Source: Escherichia coli (GTDB lineage Bacteria > Pseudomonadota > Gammaproteobacteria > Enterobacterales > Enterobacteriaceae). From it: 64,000 bases of DNA. Positions 30,566 through 52,823 of this stretch are shown here, in pieces. Every line of letters begins with the position of its first letter. Positions within the stretch are counted from its first letter, which is position 1. Location: NCBI RefSeq assembly GCF_030384885.1, contig NZ_CP128613.1. One strand, given 5' to 3'. The position numbers and the translations under genes are program-made. The notes beneath the pieces were generated by a model. It was not told the DNA's origin, ran no database searches, and worked only from the letters and a program-made list of their open reading frames with translations.

Positions 30566-31459
<894 letters not shown>

Positions 31460-31510
31460 TTACCTCATCAATCGCTTGTAGTTATATGTTGTGTTGTGCA
31501 CATCTATCCG

Positions 31511-31535
31511 TTTAGACGTCCAGATGTAAAGATGA
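31511..31535. promoter_or_regulatory. MetJ operator (met-box repeats) upstream of metF
   Basis: Tandem 8-bp AGACGTCT-like repeats ttagacgtccagatgtaaagatg just upstream of the metF start. Confidence 0.5.
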
Positions 31536-31808
31536 AGGAAAAGCTGAAGGGCGTCAACCGAAAAATGACCAATGATGGTGAGGAAAAATCAGGGAAGATG
31601 AAAAAAATTCAGGATAAAGGCCAAAGTTCCTCGTACCTGAACATGTGGAATATACCTCATTTAAGATGATATTTATTTGTTTAATTATTTTTTCTATTAA
31701 CCGGTGCAACGAGTGTTAAAGCGTGTAATTTTAGGATTATATCAATAGTCACGGTTATACAAACAGTGATAATTTATGAAATAATTTTATTTACCAGAGG
31801 AATAGCGC

Positions 31809-32783
31809 ATGTATCTTAATACTCAAGTTCAATATAATAAGTTAAATAAAGATGAAAAAAAGATCCTGTTGTTACAAAAGCTAGCCCATTTAACTGATTT
31901 TACTTTTGACAGAATAGAGACATTTTCAGCATTTGGACAATCTACTGAAACAGGTGTTTTTAAATATAAAGATGGCAATGAATTTGTTGTTGTCCCCGGG
32001 GATACAGTAATATTAGGGTGGGATGCCAGTCTCAATAATATGGATGGTCCGACAAAACAAGAATTTGAAGAGATGTTGGAACCAGAAGGTTTAGATTTGA
32101 ATAATTATCTCACCGACTCTTGCACACCTGTCAGGAAGGTTACAATTTCCCCGATGCTGGTTGAAAGAAACGTTCACGCCGAACCAAGTTGGAAGGAAGT
32201 ATCTCTTACGGACCCCCGCATCACAGAGAACAGCATGCTGCAAAAATTTCTGTCTGATTATATGGAAAAAATTAATCCTGGAGTTCACGAATTAAACGCA
32301 AGATTGAGATTACAATATATAGATGGGGATTTATTTGCACAAATATATGAATCAATTAGCTATGATGAGTTACTTCAAAATATCCAAAGCAATAGTTTTG
32401 ATCTTCCGAGCGAAGATGAATGGGAATATTTATGTGGCGGTGGTTCCAGGACACTCTGGCGCTGGGGGAATAATTTCGACTATCAAATGAAAATCCCATT
32501 TATTACTTCAGAAGAACCAACAACCTGGGATATAGAATGGCCTAATCAGTTTGGGTTGCAGATTGCATTTGATCCCTATCTTCAGGAAATTATTAATGAT
32601 AAAGATATTCTTCTGAAAGGTGGCGATGGTGGGTGCAATCTCTGCGGAGGTGCTAATGTTGTATTAGGATTCTTGCCTGTGGCAACTTATTACAAAGGAT
32701 ATAATAAACATACGGACGAATTAGAATATATGGATGACATTGGAGACAATTATACTTCTTATCGCAGAATAATTCGTTTATGA
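31809..32783 (+). CDS. Hypothetical protein, AT-rich gene; weak FGE-sulfatase (SUMF1)-like motif
   Basis: 324 aa ORF with AGAGGA RBS; motif LPSEDEWEYLCGGGSRTLWRWGNNFD resembles the FGE-domain EWEY...GG core; no other FGE signatures recognised. Confidence 0.6.
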   Translation: MYLNTQVQYNKLNKDEKKILLLQKLAHLTDFTFDRIETFSAFGQSTETGVFKYKDGNEFVVVPGDTVILGWDASLNNMDGPTKQEFEEMLEPEGLDLNNYLTDSCTPVRKVTISPMLVERNVHAEPSWKEVSLTDPRITENSMLQKFLSDYMEKINPGVHELNARLRLQYIDGDLFAQIYESISYDELLQNIQSNSFDLPSEDEWEYLCGGGSRTLWRWGNNFDYQMKIPFITSEEPTTWDIEWPNQFGLQIAFDPYLQEIINDKDILLKGGDGGCNLCGGANVVLGFLPVATYYKGYNKHTDELEYMDDIGDNYTSYRRIIRL

Positions 32784-32864
32784 GTAAAAATTATATTTCA
32801 GGACAAGAAGTTATGCTCGAGTCAAGCTAATGAATTGCTTAACGCAAGGAATAAAAACGTATTG

Positions 32865-34346
32865 ATGAACACTGGGAATTTCGAGTCGATACAAATCATG
32901 ATCGCCGCGCAAGAGTGGCGTAGCCTGCCGCTGCATCTGCGTTTGTATCAGGCTTTTCGTCAGTTGGTGATTTCTGGCGCGTTGTCTGATGGCGCAAAAC
33001 TGCCGTCCGCTCGCGCACTGGCCCAGCAACTGCACCTTTCCAGAGATACCATCGAAAATGCCTATTCCCAGCTCCACCGCGACGGTTTTATGGCTCGCAG
33101 GCAGGGGGCCGGGAGTTTCGCCAGCCGCCAGGGGATACCGCATATTCAGGGCCAGCATGCGCAACCACCCTCGCCCGGACAAGTACCGGCTTTAAGCGCT
33201 CGCTGGCAGCCAATTGCCGATCGCGCAGTCTCTTTCGATGCCCGCCAGATGCAGACCTTTACGCTTGGCCTGCCGGAAACGCGAAACTTCCCGCTAAACA
33301 TTTGGCAGAACTTTTCCCGCCAGATCCAACGTGAGCAGGCGCATACGCTGATGTTAAATAGCGATCCGCAGGGCGAGCCACAGCTGCGCCAGCAAATTGC
33401 GCATTACCTTAATTTTGAACGCGGCGCGAAGGTAGATGCCGGGCAGATTGTGATTGTCAGCGGCGCACGGCAGGCGTTCTGGCTGTGCGGGCAACTGCTG
33501 GCAGAGGCCGGACAGTCGGTGGCGATGGAAAATCCGGGCTATCCCGGCGCGCGTCAGGCGTTTTCTGCCGCACAGCTTAATCTTCTTCCCGTTGAAGTGG
33601 ATGACGCCGGGATCCGGGTGGATAAACTGCCGCCCGCGCCGCTGGTTTACGTCACGCCCTCGCACCAGTTTCCTTCCGGTCATTTGCTCACGCTGGCGCG
33701 GCGTCATGCCCTGATTGCCTGGGCGCAGGCGCACAATGCATGGATTATCGAAGACGACTACGACAGCGAATTTCACTACACCAGCGCGCCCGTCGCCTGT
33801 CTGCAAGGGTTAGACTGCGAGCAACGCACCCTGTATGTCGGCACTTTCAGCAAAACGCTCTATCCCGGCCTGCGCATCGGTTATCTGGTGGTGCCGACGT
33901 CGCTGGCTGCGCACTTTGCCGCCGCGCGTAATTTGCTTGATGGCGCAACGCCTGCGTTATCCCAACTAACGCTGGCGCGATTTATCGAGTCCGGTCATTT
34001 TGCCGCCCATATTCGCAACATGCGCAGTATGTACGCAGTGCGACAGGCGAGCCTGGCAGAGGCTATTCATCAACACTTAAGTGAATGGGTCACGCCAGTG
34101 GTGACATCCGGTGGGTTACAAATGCCCTGCTGGCTGCATGAAGGTATTGATGAGCAACAGACGCTAAATGCCGCGCGCCGCGCCGGGTTAAACATCGCCG
34201 GAATGCGCCAGTTCTGGCTGACGCACCCCGCGCCCGCGGGCTGGCTGCTGGGATTTGCCGCCTTTACCCCCTACGAGATTGAACAGGGCGTCAAGCGTCT
34301 GCGGGCTGCATTATGCACTGAAAACGTGCGCCCAGCCGGGTCATAA
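32865..34346 (+). CDS. MocR/GntR-family regulator with fused PLP aminotransferase-like domain
   Basis: N-terminal GntR HTH (…LPSARALAQQLHLSRDTIENAYSQLHRDGFMARRQGAGSFAS…) and large C-terminal fold-type-I-like domain; start ambiguous (TTG 32835, ATG 32865 or 32898). Confidence 0.8.
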   Translation: MNTGNFESIQIMIAAQEWRSLPLHLRLYQAFRQLVISGALSDGAKLPSARALAQQLHLSRDTIENAYSQLHRDGFMARRQGAGSFASRQGIPHIQGQHAQPPSPGQVPALSARWQPIADRAVSFDARQMQTFTLGLPETRNFPLNIWQNFSRQIQREQAHTLMLNSDPQGEPQLRQQIAHYLNFERGAKVDAGQIVIVSGARQAFWLCGQLLAEAGQSVAMENPGYPGARQAFSAAQLNLLPVEVDDAGIRVDKLPPAPLVYVTPSHQFPSGHLLTLARRHALIAWAQAHNAWIIEDDYDSEFHYTSAPVACLQGLDCEQRTLYVGTFSKTLYPGLRIGYLVVPTSLAAHFAAARNLLDGATPALSQLTLARFIESGHFAAHIRNMRSMYAVRQASLAEAIHQHLSEWVTPVVTSGGLQMPCWLHEGIDEQQTLNAARRAGLNIAGMRQFWLTHPAPAGWLLGFAAFTPYEIEQGVKRLRAALCTENVRPAGS

Positions 34347-35397
34347 TCTCATACGGGATGGTGTTGCAGGCAGCGGCAACCTGTTCCAGCGTCTGGCCTG
34401 CGCCAATAAATTCCACCTTATCGCCCGCTGTCGGCGTGACGGCGCTGGCATCGACCATAAAGCTGTCCATACAAACCCGCCCCAATACCGGTAACCGCAC
34501 GCCGCGCCAGCATACGCCCGCCGGAGGACGCATATTTCGCGGAACGCCATCCGCGTAACCCGCGGATATCGTAGCGATACGCAGCGGACGCGTGGCGGTA
34601 ATCGTACTGCCATAGCCAACTGGCGTTCCCGCCGGGACATCCTGCACGCGCAGAATAGTTAGCGTCAGCGTAAAAGCCGGTTTTAGCGGCCTGGAAAACC
34701 ACGGCTGGGCGACGCCAAACAGCGCAATCCCCGGACGGCAGAGATCTTCCCGCCAACCTGGTTGCAAAAACATTCCGCAGGAGTTCGCCAGCGAAAATCG
34801 GCTGCTGGGGAAAACCGTTTTTGCCTGCTGGAATAGCGCGTGTTGCGCCACATTTAACGCATGATCCGGCCTGTCGGCGTTCGCCAGATGGCTGATGATA
34901 TAGTCCGGCGCAGGCCAGTTACGCTCACGAAATATCGCCGCCAGACGCATCAGTTGTTGCGGCATCACGCCCAGCCGCGACATACCGGAATCGAGCTGGA
35001 TCATCACCGCACGCCGCTGCTGGCGCGTTTCCAGTAACGTAAGCCACGCCATCACCTGGTCAATGGAATTGAGCAATGGCGTGATCTGCTGCGCGTAACA
35101 ATACGCCATCGCCTCCGGCATAACCCCATTAAGCACTACCACCATCGCATCAGTGGGCAGGATTTTACGCAGCGCCACGCCCTCCGAAAGCTGTGCCACA
35201 AAAAAGATCCGGCAGTTCGCCGCATACAGGGCGGGCGCAATCGCCTCCGCCCCCAGACCATAGGCATTGGCTTTCAACACCGCGCCACATTGCGCAGGGG
35301 CAACATGGCGCGCCAGCGTGCGATAATTATCGACGATGGCGGCGAGATTGACGCACATAACGCCGCACGCCGCCTGGATTTCAGTAGAAGTCATCAT
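34291..35397 (-). CDS. Alanine racemase-family PLP enzyme (fold type III)
   Basis: PLP-lysine motif AVLKANAYGLGA and C-terminal GRVCMDSFMVD motif; start ATG overlaps the stop of the upstream SHMT-like gene (ATGA). Confidence 0.85.
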   Translation of the reverse strand: MMTSTEIQAACGVMCVNLAAIVDNYRTLARHVAPAQCGAVLKANAYGLGAEAIAPALYAANCRIFFVAQLSEGVALRKILPTDAMVVVLNGVMPEAMAYCYAQQITPLLNSIDQVMAWLTLLETRQQRRAVMIQLDSGMSRLGVMPQQLMRLAAIFRERNWPAPDYIISHLANADRPDHALNVAQHALFQQAKTVFPSSRFSLANSCGMFLQPGWREDLCRPGIALFGVAQPWFSRPLKPAFTLTLTILRVQDVPAGTPVGYGSTITATRPLRIATISAGYADGVPRNMRPPAGVCWRGVRLPVLGRVCMDSFMVDASAVTPTAGDKVEFIGAGQTLEQVAAACNTIPYEIMTRLGARFQCIMQPADA

Positions 35398-36632
35398 TGA
35401 TAAGACAACGGGTAGCGGTTGGTTAGTTGTATTACTTTTTGCTCAATATCGGCGCAAATGCCTGCGATATCTGACGAGTTGATGGCGAAAATGATTTCAC
35501 TTATCCAGTCAGCAATAAGCACAAAATCATCCGCCTTCATCCCACGCGTGGTGCAGGCCGCGCTGCCAATACGGACCCCGGAGGTAATCGACGGCGGCTG
35601 CGGATCGCCCGGCAGGGTGTTTTTATTGACCGTGATCCCCGCCAGTTCGAGAAAGTACTCCACCTGTGCGCCGGTTAACCCCTGCGGGCGCAGGTCGATA
35701 ATCCCCAGATGGCAGTCGGTGCCGCCCGTTAACAGCGTCAGACCGCGCTGCGCCAGTTGCTGGCACATCGCCTGCGCATTGTCGATAACCTACCCGGCGT
35801 AACGTTTAAATTCTGGTTGTAATGCCTCGCCAAGCGCCACCGCTTTCGCCGCGATAACGTGCATCAACGGCCCGCCCTGCAAACCGGGAAAGATGGCGCT
35901 GTCGATTTTTTTCGCAAGCCTGGCGTCATTGGTGAGGATCATGCCGCCGCGCGGCCCGCGCAACGTTTTATGCGTGGTGGTGGTGACCACATCAGCATAC
36001 GCCAGCGGCGAAGGAAAACAGCCGCCCGCCACCAGCCCGGCAAAGTGCGCCATATCCACCAGCAAAATGGCATCAACGGCATCGGCAATGCGGCGAAAAC
36101 GGGCAAAATCATAGTGGCGTGGATAAGCCGATCCTCCGGCAATAATTAACCGTGGGCGCTCGCGTAGCGCGATCATCTCGACCTCATCCATATCAATCAG
36201 GCCACTATGGGCATCGACGCCATAGTGAAAGGCGTTAAACCATTTGCCGGATTGATTGACCGGAGAACCGTGCGTGAGATGCCCGCCGCATTGCAGGCTC
36301 ATGCCAAGAATTTTGTCGCCGGGCTTCAGCAACGCCAGATAGACCGCCTGATTCGCCTGGCTGCCGGAGTGAGGCTGCACATTGACGTAACGCGCGCCAA
36401 AGAGCTGCTGCGCGCGGGTTATCGCCAGCATCTCAACCTCATCAATAAACTTACAGCCGCCGTAATAGCGATGCTGGTAATAACCTTCGGCGTATTTATT
36501 GGTTAACACCGACCCCTGCGCCGCGAGAACGGCGGGGCTTACGAAATTCTCCGAGGCAATCAGTTCCAGCGACTGCTGCTGGCGCTGTTGCTCCTGGTTA
36601 ATCAATGCAAAAAGTGGATCGTTATTTATCAT
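35394..36632 (-). pseudogene. Serine hydroxymethyltransferase (GlyA)-like gene interrupted by an in-frame TAG at 35790-35792
   Basis: N-terminal ORF (…[31 protein letters not shown]…[14 protein letters not shown]…PEFKRYAG*) and C-terminal ORF (VIDNAQAM…TSGVRIGSAA…) are in the same frame, separated only by TAG where GlyA has Gln. Confidence 0.75.
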
Positions 36633-36864
36633 GCGCTTCCCCCGCAAATTCATCATGCGATGATTTTCGCAGGGAAAACCTCGTCCGCACCCTGCCACTT
36701 TTTAGACTGAGCGCAGACCACCTATGTCGTTTTACTTAAAAGAAGAGGGAAGAAGGCTCCAGGCATCTCCATATGCGATTCTGGTTGGTAATACATCATA
36801 TTCCAGCTGCTCTTATCCGCCTACGTTATTGCATATACGGATAAGGCAGCCTCAATACGTACTT

Positions 36865-38430
36865 TTACTTGATATCTTTCACGCGCATACCGTTGATCTG
36901 TTCATCCGTGATGGTATTACCCGCTTTAAAGTAATCAACCACCGCGTGATAAACGTAATAACCGCCCGTCGTATTGCGCGCTTTACCCTCGGTAAACGCG
37001 GTAAAACCATCTCCACCATCAGCAAGGAAACTCTGAGTGGCAATGTGGTAAACCGTCGCATCTTCAATCGGTTCGCCATTCAGAGTCAGCGAGATAACCC
37101 GCTGACCAACCGGCTTGCTGCTGTCGTACTTCATTTCCAGGCCTTTCGATACCTGTAAAACGCCATTACTTAAACTTGCGCCGTGTTCCATCAAACTGCG
37201 TAATTGTTTACCCGTGAGTTCCATCGTCACCAGTTCGTTGGGGAACGGGAAGGTACTGATGACGCCACCCATCGTAATTGCACCCGCCGGGATCTCATTG
37301 CGGATACCGCCAGAGTTGGTTAACGCCAACTGGGTATTTTTACCCGCCGCTGCCAGCAAAGCGTCCGCCGCCAGATTCCCGAGAGAAGCCGATTCACCAT
37401 AGGCACGTTTCAATTCAACTGGCGATTGCGCCACCGTTTGCTGCACGACTTCATCCAGCTTTTTATTCCAACTATCAATCACCTGTTTTGTTTGCGGATC
37501 GGGCTTCCACTCGTCGGCGTAAAGGGTTTTAAGCTCGAAGTTTTTCACCGTAAAAGTGTGCGGCTTCTCTTTGTAGTCTAGAACCAGTTTACCCACATCA
37601 ATCCCGCCGCTGTCAGTGGAGAGGATTAACGTATTGCCGACTTTAATCGGTTCCGGCGTACCCACATGTGCATGCCCGGTGATCAAAATATCCAGCCCTT
37701 TCACCTGACTTGCCGTCTGAATATCTTTATCCAGTGCGCGGCGCACATCTGTGCCCCCCATACTGGACTGGCGGGCCGGAACACCTTCGTGAATCAGCGC
37801 AACGGTCAAATCAACCTTGCCTTTGAGTTCATCGATATAACGTTGTAGCCATTTAATTTCATCACGCGCCTCAATACCCACTCGCGTTGCCGCAGATACC
37901 GTATCATTAAAGGCAAATACACCGTGCAAACCAATCACGCCAATTTTCACGCCGTCTTTTTCAATGATGGTATAGGGCTTATCCCAGAATGATTTACTGC
38001 TGTTCTGATAAAAAACATTACCCTGCACAATCGGGAATTTTGCCTGACTCAACTGTAATAACGTATTGTCCCAGCCGTGATCAAATTCATGATTACCTAT
38101 AGTGGCCGCATCGAACGGCATGGTATTCATAATATCGATAATCGCCTTGCCTTTAGTCAGGCTGCTAATATACGGCCCGGTAAAATAGTCACCCGCATCA
38201 AAAAACCAGGTCGCTTTGTTTTTAGCTTTTTCTTGTTTAACAAGCGTAGTGATATTTGCCCAGCCGCCAATATCTCGTTTACCGTCAGCAATCCACGGCA
38301 CTTTATAAGGCTCTACATGTGCATGGAGGTCGTTGGTATAAATGATGGTGACATCTTTGGCGCAAGCCCAAAACGGCAGTGTTAATGCGATACCCGCAGC
38401 AAGCATTTTAATTTTCATAAACAATCCCAT
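36865..38430 (-). CDS. UshA/CpdB-family periplasmic nucleotidase (paralog A)
   Basis: Signal peptide [20 protein letters not shown]; metallophosphatase motifs [26 protein letters not shown]; C-terminal 5'-nucleotidase-type domain (…[13 protein letters not shown]…). Confidence 0.85.
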
Positions 38431-38550
38431 CCAGTGAGATAAAGGATTGCTACATTACGTTCTGAAAGGCTTTTTTATGTGAGAATACTCACATCCAGAG
38501 GCGATAACTGTAGGACAAAATCAACGACCTTATGAAATCGTTGGTGATAT

Positions 38551-39678
38551 ATGTCAAATCTGTTTGCGATTAATGTCTGTAAAACGTTCGGTTGTCGAAA
38601 TTTGGGATTGGCCTCATCGGAAGATTACAGTTGGCCAGACTATAAACTGGGTTTTCCGGCACTGCACTGCCAGGCATGCGGAAGTTACCCCCCTTTGTTT
38701 GATGAACAACAATTTCGTGACTGGTTGTCAGTTCACATGACTGCGTGTGCCATAGAAACAGGGCATTTTTGTCCATCATGCTATTGTAAAGAAAAGATTT
38801 TTTATGGCCACAACCCGCAGGGAACACAACGCGTTCAATGCCGTTCATGCAAAAAAGTCTGGACTCCGAAACAGCAGCCAGCAAGAGAAATTACGTATCC
38901 CCAGTCCATTGAAACCGTTCAACTGTTCATGCCCTTTCAAGGAGCCAGCGCAGTACAAAAGCTCTATGTTTTAGTCAGTCTTGACGCCACTCGTGGCAAC
39001 ATCCTTCATCTCTCCACGAATTATACGCAACATCAGACAGGAGACAGTCTGCGGTACAGTTACAGAGGCAATACAGAACCAACTGAGCACCATAGCGATA
39101 TTGCGCAGAGGGTAGATATGCGTGAAGCACAATTCTTGCGCCGGAGCCAGTTCGATGAAATTCAGTATGGCAGTGCTGTGCTCAAGCGCAACGGCAAGGG
39201 AGCCATACTACGCCCGGTTATCACGGCACACGGGCATTTCAGAATACTGAAAATCCGCTTTCCACATGTCAAAACGCATATCATTTCACACGAATGTTTT
39301 CTGAGAGGCGCAATTATTACAGCCTGGGCAGATCAGTTCCGCCAACAACAAGGCGAACTTTGGTTCGTAGAGGAAGAAATCAGCGACCGTAATGCTGATA
39401 TTCCCTGGCATTTTCAGGGAACGACATACCATGGTTGGTGGCAAAATCAGTGGCAACGCTGGGGGCAGGGGAATAACAGCAAGATGGTCTGCCTGCTCAC
39501 AGGAGTCTCCTTAGAAAGGGGCGCAAATGTTTCTCTGGCAACCAGTCGTTGCTTTATCACATGGCTGACAGACCAACACGACTTTACCCAAAGCGCGTTA
39601 TTATCCGCAGGTCGCGTAACGAAAATGCTGACCTCACTGGCGTTAAAATACAATGAATCGCTCACTCCATCTTGTTAG
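38551..39678 (+). CDS. Hypothetical cysteine-rich protein with N-terminal zinc-ribbon motifs (transposase-like zinc ribbon?)
   Basis: 375 aa; C-x4-C, C-x2-C, C-x2-C…C-x2-C spacing including FYGHNPQGTQRVQCRSCKKVW, resembling IS1 InsA / IS1595-type ribbons; remainder unassigned. Confidence 0.6.
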   Translation: MSNLFAINVCKTFGCRNLGLASSEDYSWPDYKLGFPALHCQACGSYPPLFDEQQFRDWLSVHMTACAIETGHFCPSCYCKEKIFYGHNPQGTQRVQCRSCKKVWTPKQQPAREITYPQSIETVQLFMPFQGASAVQKLYVLVSLDATRGNILHLSTNYTQHQTGDSLRYSYRGNTEPTEHHSDIAQRVDMREAQFLRRSQFDEIQYGSAVLKRNGKGAILRPVITAHGHFRILKIRFPHVKTHIISHECFLRGAIITAWADQFRQQQGELWFVEEEISDRNADIPWHFQGTTYHGWWQNQWQRWGQGNNSKMVCLLTGVSLERGANVSLATSRCFITWLTDQHDFTQSALLSAGRVTKMLTSLALKYNESLTPSC

Positions 39679-39907
39679 TCAATACACTCGACAAACGACC
39701 ATAAATTAATGGGATCACTATTTCTCATTTAATTAAATATATGAATGTATGACTGAAAAATATAATCACAGTCAATGTTTAATTAATAACATTATTTGTT
39801 ACTAAGATCACATAATACTTTCCTGACCTATGTTTACATAAAAATAAGACACGGTGTTCCTTTTATTTAAATAATTCAACCAATGTAACAACCCCTATCA
39901 AGGAGGG

Positions 39908-41461
39908 ATGATGAGAACTGTATTTACGACTTTATCAGTCATATTCAGCGTGATGTTTTCTCACAGTATACTAGCTCAGGACGTTACTATTTATTATACG
40001 AATGATATTCACGCACATGTCAATCCGGCAAAAATTCCCGCTGTTGATAAGAACAGACTTGTAGGTGGTATGGCTAATATTGCAGGCATCGTTAATGAAG
40101 CGAAGAAAAAAAACAAAGATGTCTTTTTCTTTGATGCAGGCGACTATTTTACCGGTCCGTATATCAGTACCCTGACCAAAGGTGAAGCTATTATTGATAT
40201 CATGAACACCATGCCCTTTGATGCGGTGTCCGTTGGTAATCACGAGTTCGATCACGGCGTGCCCAATATGGTATCTCAGTTATCAAAAGCAAAATTCCCC
40301 ATTCTGCTGGGAAATATTTACTACACCGATACAAATAAACCAGTTTGGGATCATCCGTGGACCATTATCGAAAAAGATGGTTTAAAGATTGGTGTGATTG
40401 GATTGCATGGTGCATTCGCTTTCTATGATACAGTCGCGGCAAAAGCACGTGAAGGCGTAGAAGCCAGAGACGAAATTAAATATTTAAATAAAGCACTTGC
40501 AGAATTAAAAGGTAAAGTCGACATTACCGTTTTGCTAATTCACGAAGGTGTTCCGGCGCGTCAATCAAGCTTTGGTAGTAAAGATGTGGAGCGGCTACTA
40601 CAGGCAGATATTGAGACAGCTAAAAAAGTGAATGGTGTTGATGTCTTAATTACCGGTCACGCACATGTCGGAACACCGCAACCAATAAAAGTTAATAACA
40701 CATTAATTGTATCTACCGATGCATACGGCACCGACATCGGAAAACTTGTGCTTGATTACAATCCGAAAACAAAGAAAATTGATAGTTATAATGGTGAGTT
40801 AATCACCATCTTTGCAGATCAATTTAAACCTGACACCATCGTTCAAAATACTATCGATAAATGGAGCATAAAGCTTAACAAAATAACACAGGAAGTTGTC
40901 GGCCATTCTCCCGTAGTTTTAACACGTGAGTATGGCAGTTCTTCTTCTACCGGTAACCTTATTCTAGATGCAATGATGGAAAAAACACCTGATGCCATTG
41001 CCGGATTTCAAAATAGCGGTGGGATGCGAGCTGATTTTCCTAAAGGTGATATCACACTGGGAGATGTTATTAGCACATTCCCCTTTAATAATGACCTCAT
41101 CGAGATGGATTTGACGGGCCGCGATCTCAAATCATTGATGACGCATGCAACCAATCTAACTAACGGTGTGTTACAGGTTTCAAAAAGCGTTGCGGTTGTC
41201 TATGACAGCAAAAAACCACTCAACCAACGGTTAATCTCTTTCACCATTAACGGCAAACCCGTGGAAGATAATCAAACATATCGTATTGCCACGCACTCCT
41301 TTTGTGCCAGTGGTGGTGACGGTTTTGAAGCATTTTTGAATGGAAAAAATGTGAAGACGATACCGGGAACAACCTCGGCGGAATCTATCATCGATTATTT
41401 CAAAAATCATAAACCTGTCACCCCAGACTTAACTAAACGAGTCATGGACGTCGCCAAATAA
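39908..41461 (+). CDS. UshA/CpdB-family periplasmic nucleotidase (paralog B, most divergent)
   Basis: Signal peptide, same metallophosphatase motif set ([26 protein letters not shown]); AGGAGG RBS at 39901. Confidence 0.85.
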   Translation: MMRTVFTTLSVIFSVMFSHSILAQDVTIYYTNDIHAHVNPAKIPAVDKNRLVGGMANIAGIVNEAKKKNKDVFFFDAGDYFTGPYISTLTKGEAIIDIMNTMPFDAVSVGNHEFDHGVPNMVSQLSKAKFPILLGNIYYTDTNKPVWDHPWTIIEKDGLKIGVIGLHGAFAFYDTVAAKAREGVEARDEIKYLNKALAELKGKVDITVLLIHEGVPARQSSFGSKDVERLLQADIETAKKVNGVDVLITGHAHVGTPQPIKVNNTLIVSTDAYGTDIGKLVLDYNPKTKKIDSYNGELITIFADQFKPDTIVQNTIDKWSIKLNKITQEVVGHSPVVLTREYGSSSSTGNLILDAMMEKTPDAIAGFQNSGGMRADFPKGDITLGDVISTFPFNNDLIEMDLTGRDLKSLMTHATNLTNGVLQVSKSVAVVYDSKKPLNQRLISFTINGKPVEDNQTYRIATHSFCASGGDGFEAFLNGKNVKTIPGTTSAESIIDYFKNHKPVTPDLTKRVMDVAK

Positions 41462-41495
41462 AATATCATTTATCAGTCTATTTATTTAACAAGGA

Positions 41496-43121
41496 ATGCG
41501 AATGAAAACAGTGCAGCGTACTTTACTTGCCGCAACATTGCTGACTATTTTTTCGGTCTCGGTCATGGCGCAGGATGTCACGATTATTTATACAAATGAT
41601 CTTCACGCTCATGTGGATTCTTATAAAGTGCCGTATATCGCAGACGGAAAACGCGACATTGGCGGCTTTGCCAATATATCTACTTTAGTAAAACAAGAGA
41701 AAGCGAAAAATAAAGCCACCTTTTATTTTGATGCTGGAGACTATTTCACCGGCCCTTATATCAGCAGTCTGACAAAGGGCGAAGCAATAATTGACATTAT
41801 GAATACCATGCCTTTTGACGCAGTATCAATCGGTAATCATGAGTTTGACCATGGCTGGGATAATGCCCTGCGACAATTAAGCAAAGCGAATTTTCCTGTT
41901 TTATTGGGCAATGTTTATCATAAAGAGAGTGAAAAACCCTTCTGGAACAAGCCCTACACCATCCTGGAAAAAGATGGCATCAAGATTGGTATTATTGGGC
42001 TACACGGCGTATTTGCATTTAATGATACGGTCTCGGAGCTCTCTCTCCAGGGACTCGATAATGACAATAATAACCGCTTTGATAAATCTTCCGAGACCCT
42101 TAAGAATCAGGGGATTGAAGCACGTGATGAAGTGAAGTATTTGCAGCATTATATCGACGAGTTACGTGATAAGGTTGACCTCACTGTGGCGCTGGTTCAT
42201 GAAGGCGTTCCGGCGCGTCAGTCCAGCATTGGCAATACAGATGTTAGACGCGCTCTTGATAAAGATATTCAAACCGCTAGCAAGGTGAAAGGATTGGATA
42301 TTCTGATTACCGGGCATGCCCACGTCGGAACGCCAGAACCAATCAAAGTCGGCAACACCTTAATCCTTTCGACTGATAGTGGCGGTATCGATATTGGTAA
42401 ATTAGTCCTTGATGTCAACCCTACAGCTCGTACCCATAAAATGAAGAGCTTTGAGCTGAAAACAGTTTATGCCGATGAATGGATACCCGATCCAACGACA
42501 CAAAAAGTTATCAATGGCTGGAATAAAAAACTGGCGGATATTGTACGCCAACCAGTGGGTGAATCATCGATTGCATTAACTCGCGCCTATGGTGAGTCAT
42601 CGCAACTAGGCAACCTGTTTACCGATGCAATGCTTGTCGCTGCTCCGACTGCACAGATTGCATTGATAAACTCCGGCAGCTTACGTGCGGATATAAATGC
42701 AGGCACGATTACCTTTGGCGACATTACCAGTACATTCCCCTTCAAGAATGAACTTACTGAAATGGATCTCAGCGGTAAGGATCTGCGTAACCTACTGGAA
42801 CACGGGGCATCGCTTACCAATGGCATCCTGCAAATGTCAAAAGGCGCAGAAATGCGCTATACCCCGCAGAAACCAGTAGGTCAGCGCATAGTATCTTTTA
42901 AAATTAATGGTGAAGAGATCGTTGATACGAATATTTACCATGTTGCAACAACGACTTTCCTTGCACTGGGGGGCGATGGTTTTCTGGCATTCAAAGAAGG
43001 GAAAAATGTTCAGGTCCGCGCCGGAAAAAACATGTCCGATGTCGTGATCGATTATTTGAAGAAAGGCCACAAGATTACGCCTGCACAGGTAAATGAAATG
43101 CGGGTGGACGTTAGCAAATAA
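41496..43121 (+). CDS. UshA/CpdB-family periplasmic nucleotidase (paralog C, with ~27 aa Asn/Asp-rich insert)
   Basis: Signal peptide; same motif set; insert ELSLQGLDNDNNNRFDKSSETLKNQG absent from paralogs A and B; real start probably ATG 41502. Confidence 0.85.
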   Translation: MRMKTVQRTLLAATLLTIFSVSVMAQDVTIIYTNDLHAHVDSYKVPYIADGKRDIGGFANISTLVKQEKAKNKATFYFDAGDYFTGPYISSLTKGEAIIDIMNTMPFDAVSIGNHEFDHGWDNALRQLSKANFPVLLGNVYHKESEKPFWNKPYTILEKDGIKIGIIGLHGVFAFNDTVSELSLQGLDNDNNNRFDKSSETLKNQGIEARDEVKYLQHYIDELRDKVDLTVALVHEGVPARQSSIGNTDVRRALDKDIQTASKVKGLDILITGHAHVGTPEPIKVGNTLILSTDSGGIDIGKLVLDVNPTARTHKMKSFELKTVYADEWIPDPTTQKVINGWNKKLADIVRQPVGESSIALTRAYGESSQLGNLFTDAMLVAAPTAQIALINSGSLRADINAGTITFGDITSTFPFKNELTEMDLSGKDLRNLLEHGASLTNGILQMSKGAEMRYTPQKPVGQRIVSFKINGEEIVDTNIYHVATTTFLALGGDGFLAFKEGKNVQVRAGKNMSDVVIDYLKKGHKITPAQVNEMRVDVSK

Positions 43122-43133
43122 TAAAAAAATTAT

Positions 43134-43165
43134 AATGCCATTCATTCACTGAATGGCATTATTTT
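43134..43165 (+). terminator. Terminator-like hairpin after nucleotidase paralog C
   Basis: atgccattca-ttcac-tgaatggcat followed by T-rich tract. Confidence 0.5.
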
Positions 43166-43198
43166 CTCTAAATCAACAATAGATAATGAGATATATTT

Positions 43199-44059
43199 AT
43201 GTGTATAAAAAAGCACGGGATAGCTTTATCGATTCTATTAATACCTTGCATTGGAAACGCTCAGAAAATTAAAAGTGAGGAAGGCTGGTTACATCAAAGC
43301 TTGAATGTCATTGGTCGCACAGACTCTCGCTTTGGCCCAAGGCTGACTAACGACCTCTACCCTGAATATACTGTAGCAGGAAGAAAAGACTGGTTTGATT
43401 TTTATGGTTATGTTGATCTACCAAAATTCTTTGGCGTCGGCAGTCACTATGATGTTGGGATCTGGGATGAGGGCTCACCACTATTTACGGAAATAGAACC
43501 TCGGTTTTCCATTGACAAATTGACCGGATTAAATCTTGCGTTCGGCCCTTTTAAAGAATGGTTCATTGCAAACAACTATGTCTATGATATGGGTGACAAC
43601 CAGTCATCCCGGCAAAGTACATGGTATATGGGGCTTGGTACAGATATCGACACGGGTCTACCAATTAAGCTTTCTGCCAATATATACGCCAAGTATCAGT
43701 GGCAAAACTATGGTGCCGCTAATGAAAATGAATGGGACGGATATCGATTCAAAATAAAATATAGCATTCCTCTTACCCATTTATTCGGAGGGCGATTGGT
43801 ATACAATAGTTTTACTAACTTTGATTTTGGATCCGATCTTGCGGACAAATCACACAATAATAAACGAACCAGTAATGCTATTGCTTCAAGCCATATCCTT
43901 TCCCTGCTATATGAACACTGGAAATTTGCATTTACACTACGTTATTTTCACAACGGTGGACAATGGAATGCTGGGGAGAAAGTTAACTTCGGAGATGGTC
44001 CATTTGAATTAAAAAACACAGGATGGGGAACCTATACTACTATTGGTTATCAATTTTAA
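43199..44059 (+). CDS. Tsx-family nucleoside-specific outer-membrane channel paralog
   Basis: Signal peptide, C-terminal Phe; long colinear blocks matching Tsx as recalled (…KDWFDFYGY…[12 protein letters not shown]…[14 protein letters not shown]…[26 protein letters not shown]…). Confidence 0.85.
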
Positions 44060-44275
44060 ATCAGGTGATGTTTTAGATATTTTTACTTAATGCCATTTTG
44101 TAATTGTCATAAATAACTTCACCATTCACACTGTGAATTCATCGCTCAACACAAAAGCCCCCTTATTACCGGGGCACTGACCAAAGGCAAAATGACAATC
44201 AATCACCACCTCCGCAGGAGGTGGTTTAGAGGTGACAACAAAAGCTGGCAACTGCCAGCTTTTGTTCAATAATCA

Positions 44276-46708
44276 CTACAACAACTGCGCCAGACGGTTA
44301 ATATCCGACTGAATCGCCCCGGCGGTGACGTCGCGCCCTGCGCCTGGCCCACGGATCACCAGCGGGTTGTCGCGATACCAGCGGCTTTCGATGGCAAAGA
44401 CGTTATCGCACGGTAGTAGTGATGCCAGCGGATGGTCTTCTCGCACCGCTTCCACGCCTACTCGCGCTTTGCCGTTAGCATCGAAACGCGCCACGTAGCG
44501 CAACACCAGCCCCATTTCACGGGCCGCTTCCAACCGTTGTACCATCTGCTCATTAAGTTCATCGCCATTTTCAAAGAAATGGTCGATGCTGCCACCTTCG
44601 CAATGGGTTGGCACCAGTGATTCAACACGCACCTGGTCCGGTTCAATGTTGTAACCCGCTTCACGCGCCAGAATCACCAGCTTGCGCATCACATCTTTGC
44701 CGGAGAGGTCATCACGCGGGTCAGGTTCAGTTAAGCCCTGCTGCCACGCCTGATCCACCAGCTCAGTAAACGGCACGCTACCGTCGAATTGCAGGAACAG
44801 CCAGGAGAGCGTGCCGGAGAAGATCCCGCTGATCGACAAAATAGTGTCGCCGCTGTCGATCAGATCGCGCACGGTATGGTTGATCGGCAAACCTGCGCCG
44901 ACGGTGGCGTTGTATAGCCAGTGACGCCCGGTTTTTTCGAACGCGTCGTGGATCTGTCGATATTTATTGCTGTCGCTGGCTCCCGCCAGTTTGTTGGCAC
45001 TGATGACGTGGAAACCGTGGCTGGCGAAATCGAGATACTGATCAGCAAGCTGCTGGCTGGCAGTAACGTCCAGCACCACTAAATCATCATACGGATGGGC
45101 ACGCATCCACAGGAACAGCGACTCTTCATCCTGTTCGACGGCTTCATCATTAAAGAAGGCTAGCGCACGGCTGGCGTCCAGCCCGTCATAGCTCAACAGG
45201 CTGCGACGGCTGTCCACCACGCCTGCCAGCACAAATTCAAAGCCGGTGCGCGCCGAGAGCGTGCTCTGCTCACGGGCGAACAGTTCCAGCCAGCGGGAAC
45301 CGATATTGCCCTTACCGAACAATACCAGGCCGATGCGTTTTTCTGCGCGGAAGACGGACTGATGCAGCCCCTGAATCAGGCTTTCGGTAGGTCCGGTACG
45401 CAGTACTGCCACCAGGCTGATGCCGTCATCGGACTGCCAGGTAAATTCGACCGGCTGGCCTTTCAGTTGCTGCCAGAAGCGGTGGCAATGCAGCGGGTTA
45501 CGGGTGACGCCTGCACCAACCATCGCCACCAGCGCCAGCCCCTGACGCAGGCGCAGTTCGCCAGGTAATCCTGCTTCGTCGAGGATTTTCAGCGCACTAT
45601 CGGCCACTTCCGAGGTGTAGCAAAATTGCAGCAACTGGCGATCGTTATGCACGCCAACCGCCAGTGGGCGCACCTGAGCACGTTTCAGGATTTGGTCGAT
45701 CTCTTTATGCGCCAGTTTGAAATCCTGACTGGCGGGCACCTGAAACTCAATCAAACAGACATCATCGTGGCTGGTGACAATACGCGCGCCAGTACCGGAA
45801 GCCAGCACGCGTTCAATGCGCGTGGAACCTTGATCCGGCGTGTAGCTACAGCGCAGCTGCAGGTCGATTTCACTGCCAGAAACTGGCTGTAAAGTACGGG
45901 CGTGAAGAACGGGGGCCGCCAGACGCGCCAGTTCACTGGCTTCATCAAGACGCAGCAATGGCAGCAGGCAGGCATCTTTCACTTTACGCGGGTCAGCGCT
46001 GTATACCCCGGCGACGTCGCTCCAGATGGTTACGCGGGAAACTCCCGCCAGCGCACCGATTTGTGTCGCGGAATAGTCGGAACCGTTACGCCCCAGCAGC
46101 ACCGTTTCACCGGCGTTGTTACGGCTGATAAACCCGGTCACCACCAGACGTTTGCCCGGATGTTGTACCAGTAGCTGTTGCAGCAACGGGTAAGAAAGCC
46201 CTTCATCAACCTGCGGCTGCGCGGCGCGTTCAGCGCGTAAAAACTCGCGGGCATCAAGCCAGGCCGCAGGCAATCCTTGTTGATTAAGTACCGCAGACAT
46301 CAGGCGCGCCGACCACACTTCACCGTGGCCCACCACTTCCGCATACACCGCATCGTTAATACCGCTGTCGAGCAGCGCCGCCAGGCGTTCCAGATCGCTG
46401 ACAAAAGCGCTAATGAGGCTATCGGCTTCTTCGGCGGGTAGCAGGCCGCTAATCAGATCGCACTGATAGCGACGCAGCGTTTGTTGAACCTGATGCGCAG
46501 AGAGACGATCGGTCTGGCTTAGTTTCAACCAGTTAATCAACTGGTTAGTGGTGCTACCGGCGGCGGAAACCACCATCATATCGTCAGGCTGAGAGTACTC
46601 CGCCATAATGCCCGCGACACGCAAATAACACTTCACATCAGCCAGACTACTGCCACCAAATTTATGCAGTTGACGACCTTTCGCCCCTGCCTGCGCAATC
46701 ACACTCAT
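44276..46708 (-). CDS. metL: Bifunctional aspartokinase II / homoserine dehydrogenase II
   Basis: 810 aa, MSVIAQAGAKGRQLHKFGGSSLADVKCYLRVAGIMAEY... Confidence 0.95.
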   Translation of the reverse strand: MSVIAQAGAKGRQLHKFGGSSLADVKCYLRVAGIMAEYSQPDDMMVVSAAGSTTNQLINWLKLSQTDRLSAHQVQQTLRRYQCDLISGLLPAEEADSLISAFVSDLERLAALLDSGINDAVYAEVVGHGEVWSARLMSAVLNQQGLPAAWLDAREFLRAERAAQPQVDEGLSYPLLQQLLVQHPGKRLVVTGFISRNNAGETVLLGRNGSDYSATQIGALAGVSRVTIWSDVAGVYSADPRKVKDACLLPLLRLDEASELARLAAPVLHARTLQPVSGSEIDLQLRCSYTPDQGSTRIERVLASGTGARIVTSHDDVCLIEFQVPASQDFKLAHKEIDQILKRAQVRPLAVGVHNDRQLLQFCYTSEVADSALKILDEAGLPGELRLRQGLALVAMVGAGVTRNPLHCHRFWQQLKGQPVEFTWQSDDGISLVAVLRTGPTESLIQGLHQSVFRAEKRIGLVLFGKGNIGSRWLELFAREQSTLSARTGFEFVLAGVVDSRRSLLSYDGLDASRALAFFNDEAVEQDEESLFLWMRAHPYDDLVVLDVTASQQLADQYLDFASHGFHVISANKLAGASDSNKYRQIHDAFEKTGRHWLYNATVGAGLPINHTVRDLIDSGDTILSISGIFSGTLSWLFLQFDGSVPFTELVDQAWQQGLTEPDPRDDLSGKDVMRKLVILAREAGYNIEPDQVRVESLVPTHCEGGSIDHFFENGDELNEQMVQRLEAAREMGLVLRYVARFDANGKARVGVEAVREDHPLASLLPCDNVFAIESRWYRDNPLVIRGPGAGRDVTAGAIQSDINRLAQLL

Positions 46709-49225: not shown

Positions 49226-50362
49226 TTACGAAAGCCCGCTCCCAGCAAGGACTGACGCCAGATACTTTCTGTCCATGGCTGCTTTTCGCATCTTACGTCT
49301 TAACCCTGCCTTGAATACCTTATCATTCGTTAAAATATTAATAGCGATGTGCCGTATCCCTGAAAATAATTCTGCGGCGTTTCCTCTTCGTATTTTGCAG
49401 TCGTCTTCATTCATTACCACGTCCAGACGCCAGTGCAGCTTATTCTCCACGTGCCAGTGGTTTCGGATTGCTGTGGCGAACTTTTCTGCGGTTAAATCAG
49501 CAGAACTGATATAATATCTGACCGTCATTTCTGGCTCTTTCTTTTGTTCTGCTATTATTGACCGAAAGGAGAATGCCACGCATAATTTCTTCAGTCCTTT
49601 CCATTCAAACGTGAAATCAATAAGTTCATCACGGACATCGCAAACAATATGAAGACGGATTTCTTCTCTGCCGTGACTCTTTTCACTCATTGCGTAACTG
49701 TCATGCTCTGGATTATTTAATTCTTTCAGCGGAAATTTTTCCTCGAAGGCTTTATTTAGCCGCCCCTGGTTTCCTTTTACAGCGAATACATAATCACCGC
49801 CCTGTTTTTGTATCTTCTCTGCAATATCTTTCTGGCAACCCATCGCATCAGTTGTGATGATTTTTCCTTTAATATCCAGCATGTTAAGAAGTTCAGGGAT
49901 AGCTGTAATTTCATTGGATTTCTCATCCGTCCTGATCTGTCCGATGACCAGACTGTGCATTGTTGAGAATGCACTAATGACATGAATCGCTCCCCTGCGG
50001 CGACTCTTGTCATAAGAATGCCGGAGTGTTTTTCCATCAATTGCGATGACGTCTTTATCATCTGAAGTATGGCAATCTCGCATCCAGTTAATAAAGCACT
50101 CGTGAAATTTTGAAGGACTGATACAGGATACAACTCTGGCGATGGTATCGTGAACAGGAATACCATTTTCAAAATCACCATATTGTTTTAAAAAATCGCG
50201 ATGTGCTTCCCCAAAATCCTCTATATGTTCCCAGCCTTCTGCACCAGAAATAACGGCGCAAATAGTCAACAGTAGAATATCCGATAATTTATGTTCCACT
50301 TTCCAGGTTTGTCTGTAATCGGGGATAATAGAAATATGTTCCATCAATTTTTTAAGTTCCAT
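49226..50362 (-). mobile_element. H-repeat-associated (ISAs1-family) transposase gene, intact ORF
   Basis: 378 aa, [59 protein letters not shown]... matches Rhs-associated H-rpt proteins as recalled; element ends not mapped. Confidence 0.8.
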
Positions 50363-50469
50363 TCTTTTCTCCTTAATTATGTAAGGAGTATTTGATCATG
50401 TATAAGCAATAAAAAAACAGCTTCAGGCAATGAGGAATATCTCAATTTTTAAACATAAAATGCGAATTG

Positions 50470-50905: not shown

Positions 50906-51111
50906 ATAGGATCAGATCTCGTCTGATCGTTCCCCCTGCGCTCACTACCATGGCTCTTTACCACAGCAGCCGGGGTTGTTTGGGACCGACTTCCGACAGC
51001 AGATCCCGGTGGGCCTGCCACCATCTCTTCACAAGCTTATGCTTATTACATGCAAAACGTCCCGTTTTGCATCTTTGTGCCTACGGCACACCGTGATCTT
51101 TCCCTGTCGGC

Positions 51112-52811: not shown

Positions 52812-52823
52812 GGAAATCCGGTC

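Follow-up and report, generated by a model that had tools for sequence, protein, structure and literature searches.

What occupies the interval between metF and metL in this Escherichia coli strain, how did it come to be there, and what might it do? In K-12-like genomes the two genes are separated by a spacer of only 350 bp, in agreement with an earlier, sequence-only reading of this DNA. In the stretch of 64,000 nucleotides analysed here (the window), which matches E. coli 2013C-4282 (NZ_CP027579.1) at 100% identity, nine CDS stand between the metF start codon (31456) and the metL stop (44276), the number given by that reading. They comprise three Sec-type 5′-nucleotidase paralogues (Nuc1, Nuc2 and Nuc3), a Tsx paralogue (Tsx2), a MocR/PdxR-like regulator, an alanine-racemase-like gene (Alr), an SHMT gene interrupted by a nonsense codon, and two further, unnamed genes (orf324 and hyp375), which had been taken for orphans and which both fall in conserved families.

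Borders and block structure of the interval

In blastn alignments, homology to the metF upstream DNA of all E. coli and of Citrobacter/Pseudocitrobacter ends at 31612..31616, which marks the left border. The right border falls at the metL stop codon (44276..44278, minus strand), with the junction at 44276/44277 and core homology restarting at 44277. The start proposed earlier, at 31560, therefore falls some 50 bp within the conserved promoter region of metF. Neither a tRNA nor border repeats were found at the interval and no integrase is encoded among its nine products, as had already been noted; the interval has no Rfam match.

In structure it is a mosaic in which at least four blocks, some old and some newer, differ in composition and distribution, namely orf324, MocR-Alr-SHMT, Nuc1-hyp375 and Nuc2-Nuc3-Tsx2, the GC contents of the blocks being 37%, 56-59%, 48% and 40-44%. 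The AT-richness of several genes is borne out by orf324, Nuc2 and Tsx2 (36.6%, 40.6% and 39.8% GC against 50.8% for the whole window). On the left, orf324 (31809-32783, plus strand) is a rare passenger gene encoding a cytoplasmic protein of 324 aa with a C-terminal FGE/C-type-lectin-like fold. The MocR/PdxR-like regulator (32865-34346, plus strand) combines a GntR HTH with an aminotransferase fold and scores 428.7 bits with the NCBIfam PdxR model (cut-off 320). Alr (34291-35397, minus strand), a PLP enzyme of the alanine racemase family (TIGR00492, 234 bits, cut-off 168), is 83% identical to Salmonella 'alanine racemase 3', its next relatives being alphaproteobacterial with at most 50% identity. 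The SHMT paralogue (35394-36653, minus strand) matches the SHMT model and is labelled a pseudogene in RefSeq, an in-frame CAG to TAG change having created a nonsense codon at codon 288 (bases 35790-35792). GF4-3 carries an independent stop at codon 20, and both RMDEC465 and Salmonella have an uninterrupted reading frame. With its SHMT pseudogene, the MocR-Alr-SHMT block of the present strain is decaying.

Distribution and ancestry of the blocks

Among 5426 complete E. coli genomes, the full Nuc1-to-Tsx2 stretch is carried by 658 (12%), B2/ExPEC strains among them, and Nuc1 and hyp375 alone by about 1186 others; the nucleotidase cluster is missing from about 66%. The left 5.2-5.3 kb (orf324, MocR, Alr and SHMT) is full-length in two of the 5426 and partial in one. 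The order metF-...-Nuc1-hyp375-metL recurs in 22 species-representative genomes, spread over Citrobacter spp., Klebsiella pneumoniae, K. oxytoca, Kosakonia, Phytobacter, Kluyvera, Superficieibacter, S. enterica arizonae and E. whittamii. The MocR-Alr-SHMT block, rare in E. coli, is syntenic in Salmonella, where the order is metL/../hyp374<>Nuc1-SHMT-Alr><MocR/metF.

Reference E. coli annotations already include the core of the cluster, and a description of it has been published, so that the earlier reading, which did not recognise the combination as a described system, is not borne out on this point. In CFT073 the five right-hand genes correspond to c4894-c4898, with c4894 confirmed as a member. 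The same five genes (Nuc1, hyp375, Nuc2, Nuc3 and Tsx2) form GR31 at the same site (metL..metF) in APEC BEN2908, with about 94.6% DNA identity, and the passages devoted to GR31 in a 2026 paper (PMC12928451) put forward the functional hypothesis favoured here, 'coordinated nucleoside degradation and transport'. These passages mention no role for the 375-aa gene, no CRP site and no cross-genus synteny. Induction of c4894 upon TosR overexpression has also been described. Unlike GR31, the present strain carries the extra left-hand genes, including the SHMT pseudogene, between metF and Nuc1.

The sequence-only reading had framed the interval as a single horizontally acquired island that had entered a metF-metL spacer of the K-12 type. 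The absence of the cluster from about two thirds of E. coli, its AT-rich genes and a foreign-looking hyp375 allele (dS of 1.9 to the other E. coli allele class and of 0.44 to Pseudocitrobacter) would fit such an event. We nevertheless consider it decidedly unlikely, given the lack of an integrase, tRNA or border repeat, the differences in GC content and distribution among the four blocks, and the presence at this very site of Nuc1-hyp375 in many genera and of MocR-Alr-SHMT-Nuc1-hyp375 in Salmonella. Moreover, the K-12-type spacer is unrelated DNA bearing a REP element (recognised by eye). Because of the synteny in other genera and in Salmonella, the K-12 state is better read as a deletion. Repeated insertion at a hotspot may, instead of ancestry, account for Nuc1-hyp375 at metF-metL, yet we find it reasonably probable that this is an old, variable enterobacterial locus. 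Judging from synteny, the ancestor shared by Escherichia, Salmonella, Citrobacter and Klebsiella would already have had Nuc1-hyp375 here, and the K-12-like majority of E. coli would have lost the pair. The lineage of the present strain, as in B2/ExPEC, carries the additional AT-rich Nuc2-Nuc3-Tsx2 block, and hyp375-Nuc2-Nuc3-Tsx2 was probably imported by recombination, since dS places the hyp375 allele nearer to Pseudocitrobacter.

Nucleotidases, control region and putative function

Nuc1 (36865-38418, minus strand) is a two-domain Sec-type 5′-nucleotidase with all metal and substrate motifs and a dN/dS of 0.03-0.07, and it is 98% identical to PDB 3IVD/3IVE, a 'Nucleotidase' structure. Its paralogues Nuc2 (39911-41461, plus strand) and Nuc3 (41502-43121, plus strand, carrying an insert of some 22 aa) are respectively 58% and 66% identical to it, pairwise identity among the three being 54-66%. 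Each matches Metallophos and 5_nucleotid_C and retains all catalytic and substrate-clamp motifs, and with the NCBIfam models for UshA, CpdB, NadN and SoxB all three score below the cut-off. Tsx2 (43199-44059, plus strand), an outer-membrane channel paralogue of the Tsx family, matches Channel_Tsx and NCBIfam PRK15106 (492 bits, cut-off 311) and aligns with Tsx over its full length (E 1e-114). The HMM searches upheld the nucleotidase and Tsx calls made from sequence, with the PdxR, alr and SHMT models matching as well, and the N-termini of all four proteins are, as had been claimed, signal-peptide-like with AxA-type ends (by eye). Given the retained motifs, the closeness of Nuc1 to a solved structure and the full-length match of Tsx2, the module for nucleotide-to-nucleoside processing and uptake in the envelope proposed by the sequence-only reading gains support and is the most economical reading. 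As a counterpoint, a nucleoside-specific outer-membrane channel is not obviously needed by periplasmic nucleotidases.

Across Enterobacteriaceae, both the length and the sequence of the divergent control region between Nuc1 and hyp375 (38419..38550, 132 bp) are conserved: column identity is 86%, and a 36-sequence alignment shows a spacing of 131-144 bp. A near-invariant block, TACATTACGTTCTGAAAG (38451..38468), includes the candidate -10 (TAATGT, minus strand) of a putative Nuc1 promoter and may also hold an operator. A perfect predicted CRP core, TGTGA-N6-TCACA (38478..38493), is the sole exact match in the 64 kb; its TCACA half is invariant across genera, and the candidate transcription starts are each some 41 bp away from it (promoters placed by eye from hexamer spacing). 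Directly 5′ of the hyp375 Shine-Dalgarno sequence, the conserved inverted repeat CAACGA-N10-TCGTTG (38522..38543) is a candidate operator or 5′-UTR hairpin. Further downstream, the CRP-like site TGTTACTAAGATCACA (39797..39812, one mismatch), 100 bp upstream of Nuc2, is conserved in the B2 allele, and between Nuc3 and Tsx2 a hairpin with a 13-bp stem followed by a U-run (43132..43162, plus strand; dG -20.7 kcal/mol, z -4.1) looks like a terminator or attenuator. In the control regions next to distant members of the hyp375 family, CRP-like sites with at most one mismatch occur in four of seven, five sites against about 0.1 expected by our own arithmetic. The conserved CRP core suggests that control is of the catabolic kind.

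The most likely function of the cluster, in which we place fair confidence, would be CRP-activated nucleotide scavenging, the substrates, the CRP control and the part of hyp375 being predicted from sequence. When carbon is limiting, cAMP-CRP would bind one shared site and activate the back-to-back Nuc1 and hyp375 promoters, and would also act at the second site upstream of Nuc2. Nuc1-3, exported through Sec, would strip phosphate in the periplasm from nucleotides that had entered via porins and perhaps also via Tsx2; the nucleosides would then be imported by the housekeeping NupC/NupG and the phosphate recovered as well, while hyp375 would most likely bind the conserved control region and tune the module. 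E. coli K-12 scavenges nucleosides with periplasmic UshA, CpdB and AphA, with Tsx and with NupC/NupG, under cAMP-CRP and CytR control. Like that set, the cluster pairs periplasmic metallophosphatase-type nucleotidases with a Tsx channel and has a CRP core consensus in its promoter region. In contrast, its genes are clustered where those of K-12 are scattered, Nuc1-3 are orthologous to neither UshA (152-165 bits against a cut-off of 600) nor CpdB (83-103 against 486), and the candidate for a dedicated regulator is related to transposases and not to the LacI family.

Two other roles have to be weighed against scavenging. The enzymes could mainly remove or convert extracellular nucleotide signals (the sequence-only reading had offered signal degradation as an alternative), to the benefit of ExPEC in the host. 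Such signals might be host eATP, converted to adenosine as by S. aureus AdsA and CD73, or else NAD or cyclic (di)nucleotides. B2/ExPEC/APEC strains do commonly have all five genes, the family takes in ecto-5′-nucleotidases and NadN, and three paralogues so diverged suggest different substrates. In H. influenzae, NadN and e(P4), which convert NAD to nicotinamide riboside, likewise place a 5′-nucleotidase-family member at work on a nucleotide past the outer membrane, and NadN appears among the matches of Nuc1-3; however, these score only 122-135 bits against the NadN cut-off of 436, and our analysis gave no link of the cluster to NAD. We regard a signalling role as unlikely, since the Nuc1-hyp375 core is kept in the environmental or plant-associated Kosakonia, Phytobacter and Superficieibacter, hyp375 relatives adjoin nupC-deo catabolic operons, the enzymes appear periplasmic and not surface-anchored (by eye), and the CRP core points to catabolism. 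Still less probable is a Pho-regulon device recovering phosphate from nucleotides and eDNA under phosphate starvation. In V. cholerae, the use of nucleotides and eDNA via UshA, CpdB and PhoX is reportedly tied to phosphate limitation, and these enzymes are close functional analogues with the same chemistry, periplasmic dephosphorylation preceding nucleoside and phosphate uptake in both systems. Those of the present cluster nonetheless belong to different subfamilies, and no Pho-box-like sequence (up to three mismatches) occurs anywhere in the window, where the conserved CRP core is present instead.

hyp375, an IS1-transposase homologue beside nucleotidase genes

The hyp375 gene (38551-39678, plus strand), annotated as 'cytoplasmic protein', encodes 375 aa with two Cys4 zinc modules and an RNase-H-like core. 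Comparison with IS1 InsAB′ by hhalign gave a probability of 96% (E 4e-9): an N-terminal Cys4 zinc ribbon aligns to InsA, the start of the catalytic core aligns too, and the RNase-H-like fold is shared. Unlike IS1, hyp375 is single-copy and syntenic, terminal inverted repeats were looked for around it and none found, and a further Cys4 module is present at its N-terminus. Conservation does not extend to the DDE acidic residues, no acidic residue being invariant in a 44-sequence alignment of the family, so that hyp375 is, on these alignments, an IS1-transposase homologue devoid of conserved catalytic acids. Of 35 species loci, 34 place a relative of hyp375 next to a nucleotidase gene; distant relatives adjoin nupC-PNP, nupC-deoCABD, porin-AphA-PDE, another nucleotidase or a Tsx-sulfatase operon. 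We propose hyp375 as a candidate regulator of the nucleotidase module. The case for DNA binding is weakened because the enterobacterial subfamily lacks the HTH-like segment present in distant relatives and in IS1 InsA.

A minor but appreciable possibility is that hyp375 is not a regulator at all. It could then be an IS1-like remnant, selfish or in decay, or else have some other nucleoside-related task in the cytoplasm, for instance in sensing, binding or processing. Besides its homology to IS1 and the loss of the HTH segment, it evolves fast (dN 5-20 times that of Nuc1), and a ligand pocket or an active site could be built from residues that are invariant (R198, H229) or nearly so (H247, W297, W301). 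The selfish or decaying version is, however, at odds with the single-copy state of the gene in each of 1844 genomes, with the fixed syntenic position and 132-bp spacing across genera, with a dN/dS of 0.08-0.24, indicative of purifying selection, and with its confident fold; another cytoplasmic role would be compatible with all of these findings. What is new here is the IS1 homology of hyp375, its adjacency to nucleotidase genes and the conserved CRP core in the divergent region, and the fresh lead is hyp375 itself, a transposase-derived gene almost constantly found beside a nucleotidase gene.

Organization of the metF-metL interval

The window has the same sequence as the chromosome of E. coli 2013C-4282, which was isolated from human stool in the USA. 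The order katG, metF, nine CDS, metL and metB appears in both the ORF lists and the RefSeq annotation, which bears out the nine-gene interval of the sequence-only reading, and its gene assignments were all recovered with Pfam and NCBIfam models. Following metF (30566-31456, minus strand), the interval holds an unnamed 324-aa gene, orf324 (31809-32783, plus), a MocR-type regulator (32865-34346, plus), an alanine-racemase-family gene (34291-35397, minus), an SHMT paralogue (35394-36653, minus), the 5'-nucleotidase gene Nuc1 (36865-38418, minus), an unnamed 375-aa gene divergent from it, hyp375 (38551-39678, plus), two further nucleotidase paralogues, Nuc2 (39911-41461, plus) and Nuc3 (41502-43121, plus), and the Tsx paralogue Tsx2 (43199-44059, plus), before metL (44276-46708, minus). 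Base composition differs between blocks: orf324 has a GC content of 36.6%, MocR-Alr-SHMT 56-59%, Nuc1 with hyp375 48%, and Nuc2-Nuc3-Tsx2 40-44%. The AT-rich DNA reported earlier is real, with dips to 32-40% GC across orf324 and to 36-46% across Nuc2-Tsx2, against 51% for the window. When the interval was first delimited it was placed at 31560-44275; the right end holds, as core homology restarts at the metL stop codon, but the true break on the left lies at 31612-31616.

As had been claimed from the sequence, the metF-metL region contains no integrase or recombinase, no tRNA or other attachment site and no flanking direct repeats. A repeat search of the region returned only the paralogous nucleotidase genes and short chance matches, and Rfam gave zero matches in 31000-44600 at E up to 0.1. 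Elsewhere in the window, a mobile-element patch between yiiX and rpmE (49226-57193) carries an ISAs1 transposase, a group II intron reverse transcriptase (ltrA), an IS1 fragment and an RHS element core protein with a downstream ORF. The genes manD (D-mannonate dehydratase) and an MFS transporter (3119-5683) lie between oxyR and argH and are probably another accessory insert, since oxyR and argH are adjacent in K-12.

Distribution and ancestry of the locus

Searches across 5426 complete E. coli genomes distinguished four states at metF-metL. A K-12-like 350-bp spacer is present in about 66% of them, Nuc1 and hyp375 alone in about 22%, and Nuc1, hyp375, Nuc2, Nuc3 and Tsx2 together in 12% (658/5426), while the full-length left 5.2 kb was found in only two, the window strain and RMDEC465. 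GF4-3 is a third genome with MocR-Alr-SHMT, in which PTS EIIC and MalI-like genes replace orf324 ahead of the block. The K-12-like spacer was searched for traces of Nuc1 or hyp375 and none were found, the DNA being unrelated. In a representative of this state (L004), we recognised by eye a REP/BIME-type palindrome and a second hairpin (1617-1808), and a 44-aa hypothetical ORF annotated by RefSeq overlaps the start of the spacer.

A scan of one genome per species, with a query profile of 10 sequences, yielded 35 loci encoding a hyp375 relative. In 34 of these the next gene upstream, in divergent orientation, encodes a Nuc1-family nucleotidase, and the 35th locus ends at that point. The pair sits between metF and metL in 22 of the 35, including many Citrobacter species, K. 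pneumoniae, K. oxytoca, K. spallanzanii, Kosakonia, Phytobacter, Pseudocitrobacter, Superficieibacter, Kluyvera, S. enterica arizonae, E. whittamii and a cryptic Escherichia. One Salmonella enterica lineage has the order metL, an MscS-like gene, a 332-aa gene, hyp374 diverging from Nuc1-SHMT-Alr, MocR converging on the latter, and metF.

The sequence-only reading had taken the whole interval for a single inserted accessory island. Neither this nor an integrative genomic island fits a site that has no integrase, tRNA or direct repeats, at which the Nuc1-hyp375 pair is found in 22 species representatives and both that pair and MocR-Alr-SHMT are syntenic in Salmonella. These comparisons argue instead that the Nuc1-hyp375 pair is older than E. 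coli at metF-metL and that the K-12 arrangement is a loss, and thus a derived state. The MocR-Alr-SHMT block is probably likewise older than E. coli at this position.

When we compared window positions 36865-39678 with two other loci (L003 and L007), hyp375 in E. coli fell into two deeply diverged allele classes, with 72% amino acid identity and a dS of 1.9 between the window strain and ST2747, and the window allele was nearer to Pseudocitrobacter (dS 0.44). In contrast, the Nuc1 genes beside those alleles were nearly identical (98% amino acid identity, dS 0.15). The hyp375-Nuc2-Nuc3-Tsx2 stretch was thus probably brought in via recombination with a foreign allele, which would place a breakpoint inside the 132-bp control region between Nuc1 and hyp375 or close to it. 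A second arrangement, in which hyp375 diverges from Nuc1-Nuc2-Tsx-Nuc3 read in one direction, occurs at other chromosomal loci (L009, L010, L022, L025, L043 and L047) in Enterobacter, a Klebsiella sp., Citrobacter sp. wls619 and some Escherichia; both versions of the module are found in E. coli SCPM-O-B-8794 and Escherichia sp. MOD1-EC7003.

The MocR-type regulator combines a GntR HTH with an aminotransferase-fold domain and scores 428.7 against the NCBIfam PdxR model (cut-off 320), and under the cut-offs of both the rhizopine MocR and the GabR models. The SHMT paralogue is intact in RMDEC465 and Salmonella and carries independent nonsense mutations in two E. coli strains: Q288 is replaced by an in-frame TAG at codon 288 in the window (35790-35792), and Q20 by a stop in GF4-3 (L005 9693-10931). 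These mutations show the block decaying in E. coli and suggest that the additional glyA-like gene is under relaxed or negative selection there. Beyond the E. coli and Salmonella sequences ('alanine racemase 3'), the nearest kin of the racemase-like gene (34291-35397) are alphaproteobacterial alanine racemases of Bartonella, Rhizobium and Sphingomonas, at 50% identity or less, as if the gene had been acquired long ago from a donor that was not gammaproteobacterial.

The orf324 product lacks a signal peptide and has a confident predicted structure (pLDDT 91.6); its homologues are found chiefly in Firmicutes and Bacteroidota, and also in E. albertii. An 87% identical relative occupies the same metF-proximal site in a cryptic Escherichia (L018 4708-5688), and a frameshifted relative, 54-69% identical, lies at that site in Superficieibacter electus (L038 4133-5139). 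We rejected a defence-system reading of orf324 and hyp375, for which PADLOC gave no match and PHROGs only weak domain-level matches.

The nucleotidases, Tsx2 and their control region

Nuc1, Nuc2 and Nuc3, which are 54-66% identical to one another, each consist of a Metallophos N-domain and a 5_nucleotid_C domain (Pfam). All three keep the metal motifs D-x-H, GD, GNHE, H and GH-x-H, as well as the His-Asp catalytic dyad, the C-domain Arg residues and the Phe clamp, residues whose roles are known from the structures of UshA and CD73. Read by eye, their N-termini resemble Sec signal peptides with AxA-type sites. Their scores are far under the curated cut-offs for UshA (NF007109, 152-165 against 600), CpdB (NF006938, 83-103 against 486), NadN (TIGR01530, 122-135 against 436) and SoxB (TIGR04486, 148-155 against 550), and they are therefore not orthologues of any of these enzymes. 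Nuc1 is under strong purifying selection (dN/dS 0.03-0.07) and shares 98% identity with PDB 3IVD/3IVE, depositions named 'Nucleotidase', which we take to be structural-genomics entries for CFT073 c4898 with uridine and cytidine bound. Tsx2 is a full-length Channel_Tsx protein (Pfam E 5.6e-70; NCBIfam 492 against a cut-off of 311; 1TLW E 1.3e-114).

The sequence-only reading had proposed an undescribed system for nucleotide processing and uptake. The system is not undescribed, since PMC12928451 names the five right-hand genes GR31 in APEC BEN2908, gives them as common to ExPEC and AIEC model strains and takes them to process and transport nucleosides in a coordinated way. An RNA-seq table lists c4894 (Tsx2) as one of the genes that respond to TosR overexpression in CFT073 with induction. 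The functional guess was reasonable, was already in the literature and concerns a predicted function. Its nearest functional counterparts are the K-12 UshA/CpdB/AphA-Tsx-NupC/G set under CRP/CytR and the use of nucleotides and eDNA by V. cholerae. The cluster is an ordinary one, a predicted variant of the well-known scavenging route through periplasmic nucleotidases and Tsx, in which paralogous genes are clustered. In ExPEC the five-gene form has already been annotated, crystallised and described. Our literature search found no experimental work on the Nuc1-3 enzymes, no work on hyp375 or its family, and no earlier statement of the pair as ancestral or CRP-linked.

The spacer between Nuc1 and hyp375 is 132 bp long, and across genera it keeps its length (131-144 bp) and 86% sequence identity, while the hyp375 proteins of those genera are only 57-85% identical. 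It contains an exact CRP core, TGTGA-N6-TCACA (38478-38493), the sole exact match in the 64-kb window, where we calculate a chance expectation of about 0.06; the TCACA half is invariant across the aligned control regions. The 22-bp full CRP consensus found no match with up to 3 mismatches because the spacer differs, although the 16-bp core is exact. With candidate -10 hexamers on both sides (TAATGT for Nuc1, CAAAAT for hyp375), the core lies about 41 bp from both starts, which suggests back-to-back class II CRP promoters with one common site, the -41.5-type spacing depending on those candidate hexamers. Two candidate operators flank it, an invariant block TACATTACGTTCTGAAAG (38451-38468) and a conserved inverted repeat CAACGA-N10-TCGTTG (38522-38543). 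The conserved control-region motifs have no further copies in the window, therefore no local regulon can be defined. A one-mismatch CRP-like site, retained in the B2 allele, precedes Nuc2 by 100 bp, and a strong hairpin followed by a U-run separates Nuc3 from Tsx2.

Membership of the Pho regulon was rejected, as a search of the window that allowed up to 3 mismatches recovered no Pho box. CytR operators gave weak by-eye matches only (6-7/8 positions). The gene for CytR, the LacI-family repressor of the nucleoside-catabolism regulon, itself lies at 60122-61147, some 16 kb beyond the right end of the cluster (metL-metB-metJ-...-rpmE-priA-cytR), and a LacI-family gene likewise follows priA in the Pseudocitrobacter and Citrobacter loci. 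In genomes that lack the RHS insertion, only about 7-8 kb thus separate cytR from the ancestral Nuc1-hyp375 pair, a closeness that may be coincidence.

The hyp375 family and its possible role

The transposase-derived partner gene hyp375 is the sole lead that merits pursuit. Clustering of 1.84 billion proteins at 50% leaves 123 representatives of the small gammaproteobacterial family that it forms with its relatives. Many members are mis-annotated, the AFDB labels being 'cytoplasmic protein' or 'IS1 family transposase'. The protein carries two Cys4 modules, R198 and H229 are invariant in its C-terminal domain, and its AlphaFold model is confident (pLDDT 92.5, pTM 0.92). The single sequence matches IS1 HMMs weakly (NCBIfam 20.4, cut-off 100; Pfam E 0.043). 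When the family profile was compared with IS1 InsAB', hhalign gave a probability of 96% (E 3.9e-9), with an alignment that spans the InsA-type zinc ribbon, the HTH (in distant members only) and the first strands of the catalytic core. An RNase-H-like fold is present, but there is no conserved DDE triad: the family alignment has no invariant D or E, and the first catalytic Asp of IS1 falls on a non-conserved stretch. A mobile IS1 can be dismissed, as hyp375 occupies one place per genome in 1844 genomes, is syntenic across genera and has no flanking inverted repeats. The gene is under purifying selection (dN/dS 0.08-0.24).

Among distant relatives, a divergent 5'-nucleotidase gene neighbours P0260 and the V. 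rhodolitus relative, and one on the same strand lies immediately upstream of P0286. Others are found beside nupC and a nucleoside phosphorylase (P0264), nupC-deoCABD (P0274), a porin with an AphA-like phosphatase and a class II phosphodiesterase (P0262), or a Tsx-sulfatase operon (P0278). CRP-like sites are enriched in the control regions beside these members, with 5 found against about 0.1 expected by our own arithmetic. We tentatively propose, at somewhat short of even confidence, that the hyp375 family is a domesticated IS1 transposase which lost catalysis and mobility and became a dedicated DNA-binding regulator or sensor, acting with cAMP-CRP on envelope nucleotide/nucleoside scavenging modules (periplasmic nucleotidases, Tsx or porin channels, nupC-deo operons). 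A regulator or sensor role, drawn from gene neighbourhood and fold, would be the most economical reading, and the case for DNA binding is weaker because the enterobacterial subfamily lost the HTH-like segment.

Because K-12 shows the derived arrangement, this site exemplifies differential loss and not island gain, which matters when 'pathotype-specific acquisitions' are counted. Depending on the lineage, E. coli has none, one or three predicted periplasmic nucleotidases here, a testable difference in the use of nucleotides and DNA in gut and urine. If hyp375 does regulate the scavenging modules, it would offer a clear example from bacteria of a DDE transposase co-opted to control host genes, and re-annotation would be needed for proteins that now bear an IS1 transposase label in the genomes of Vibrio, Serratia and Proteus.
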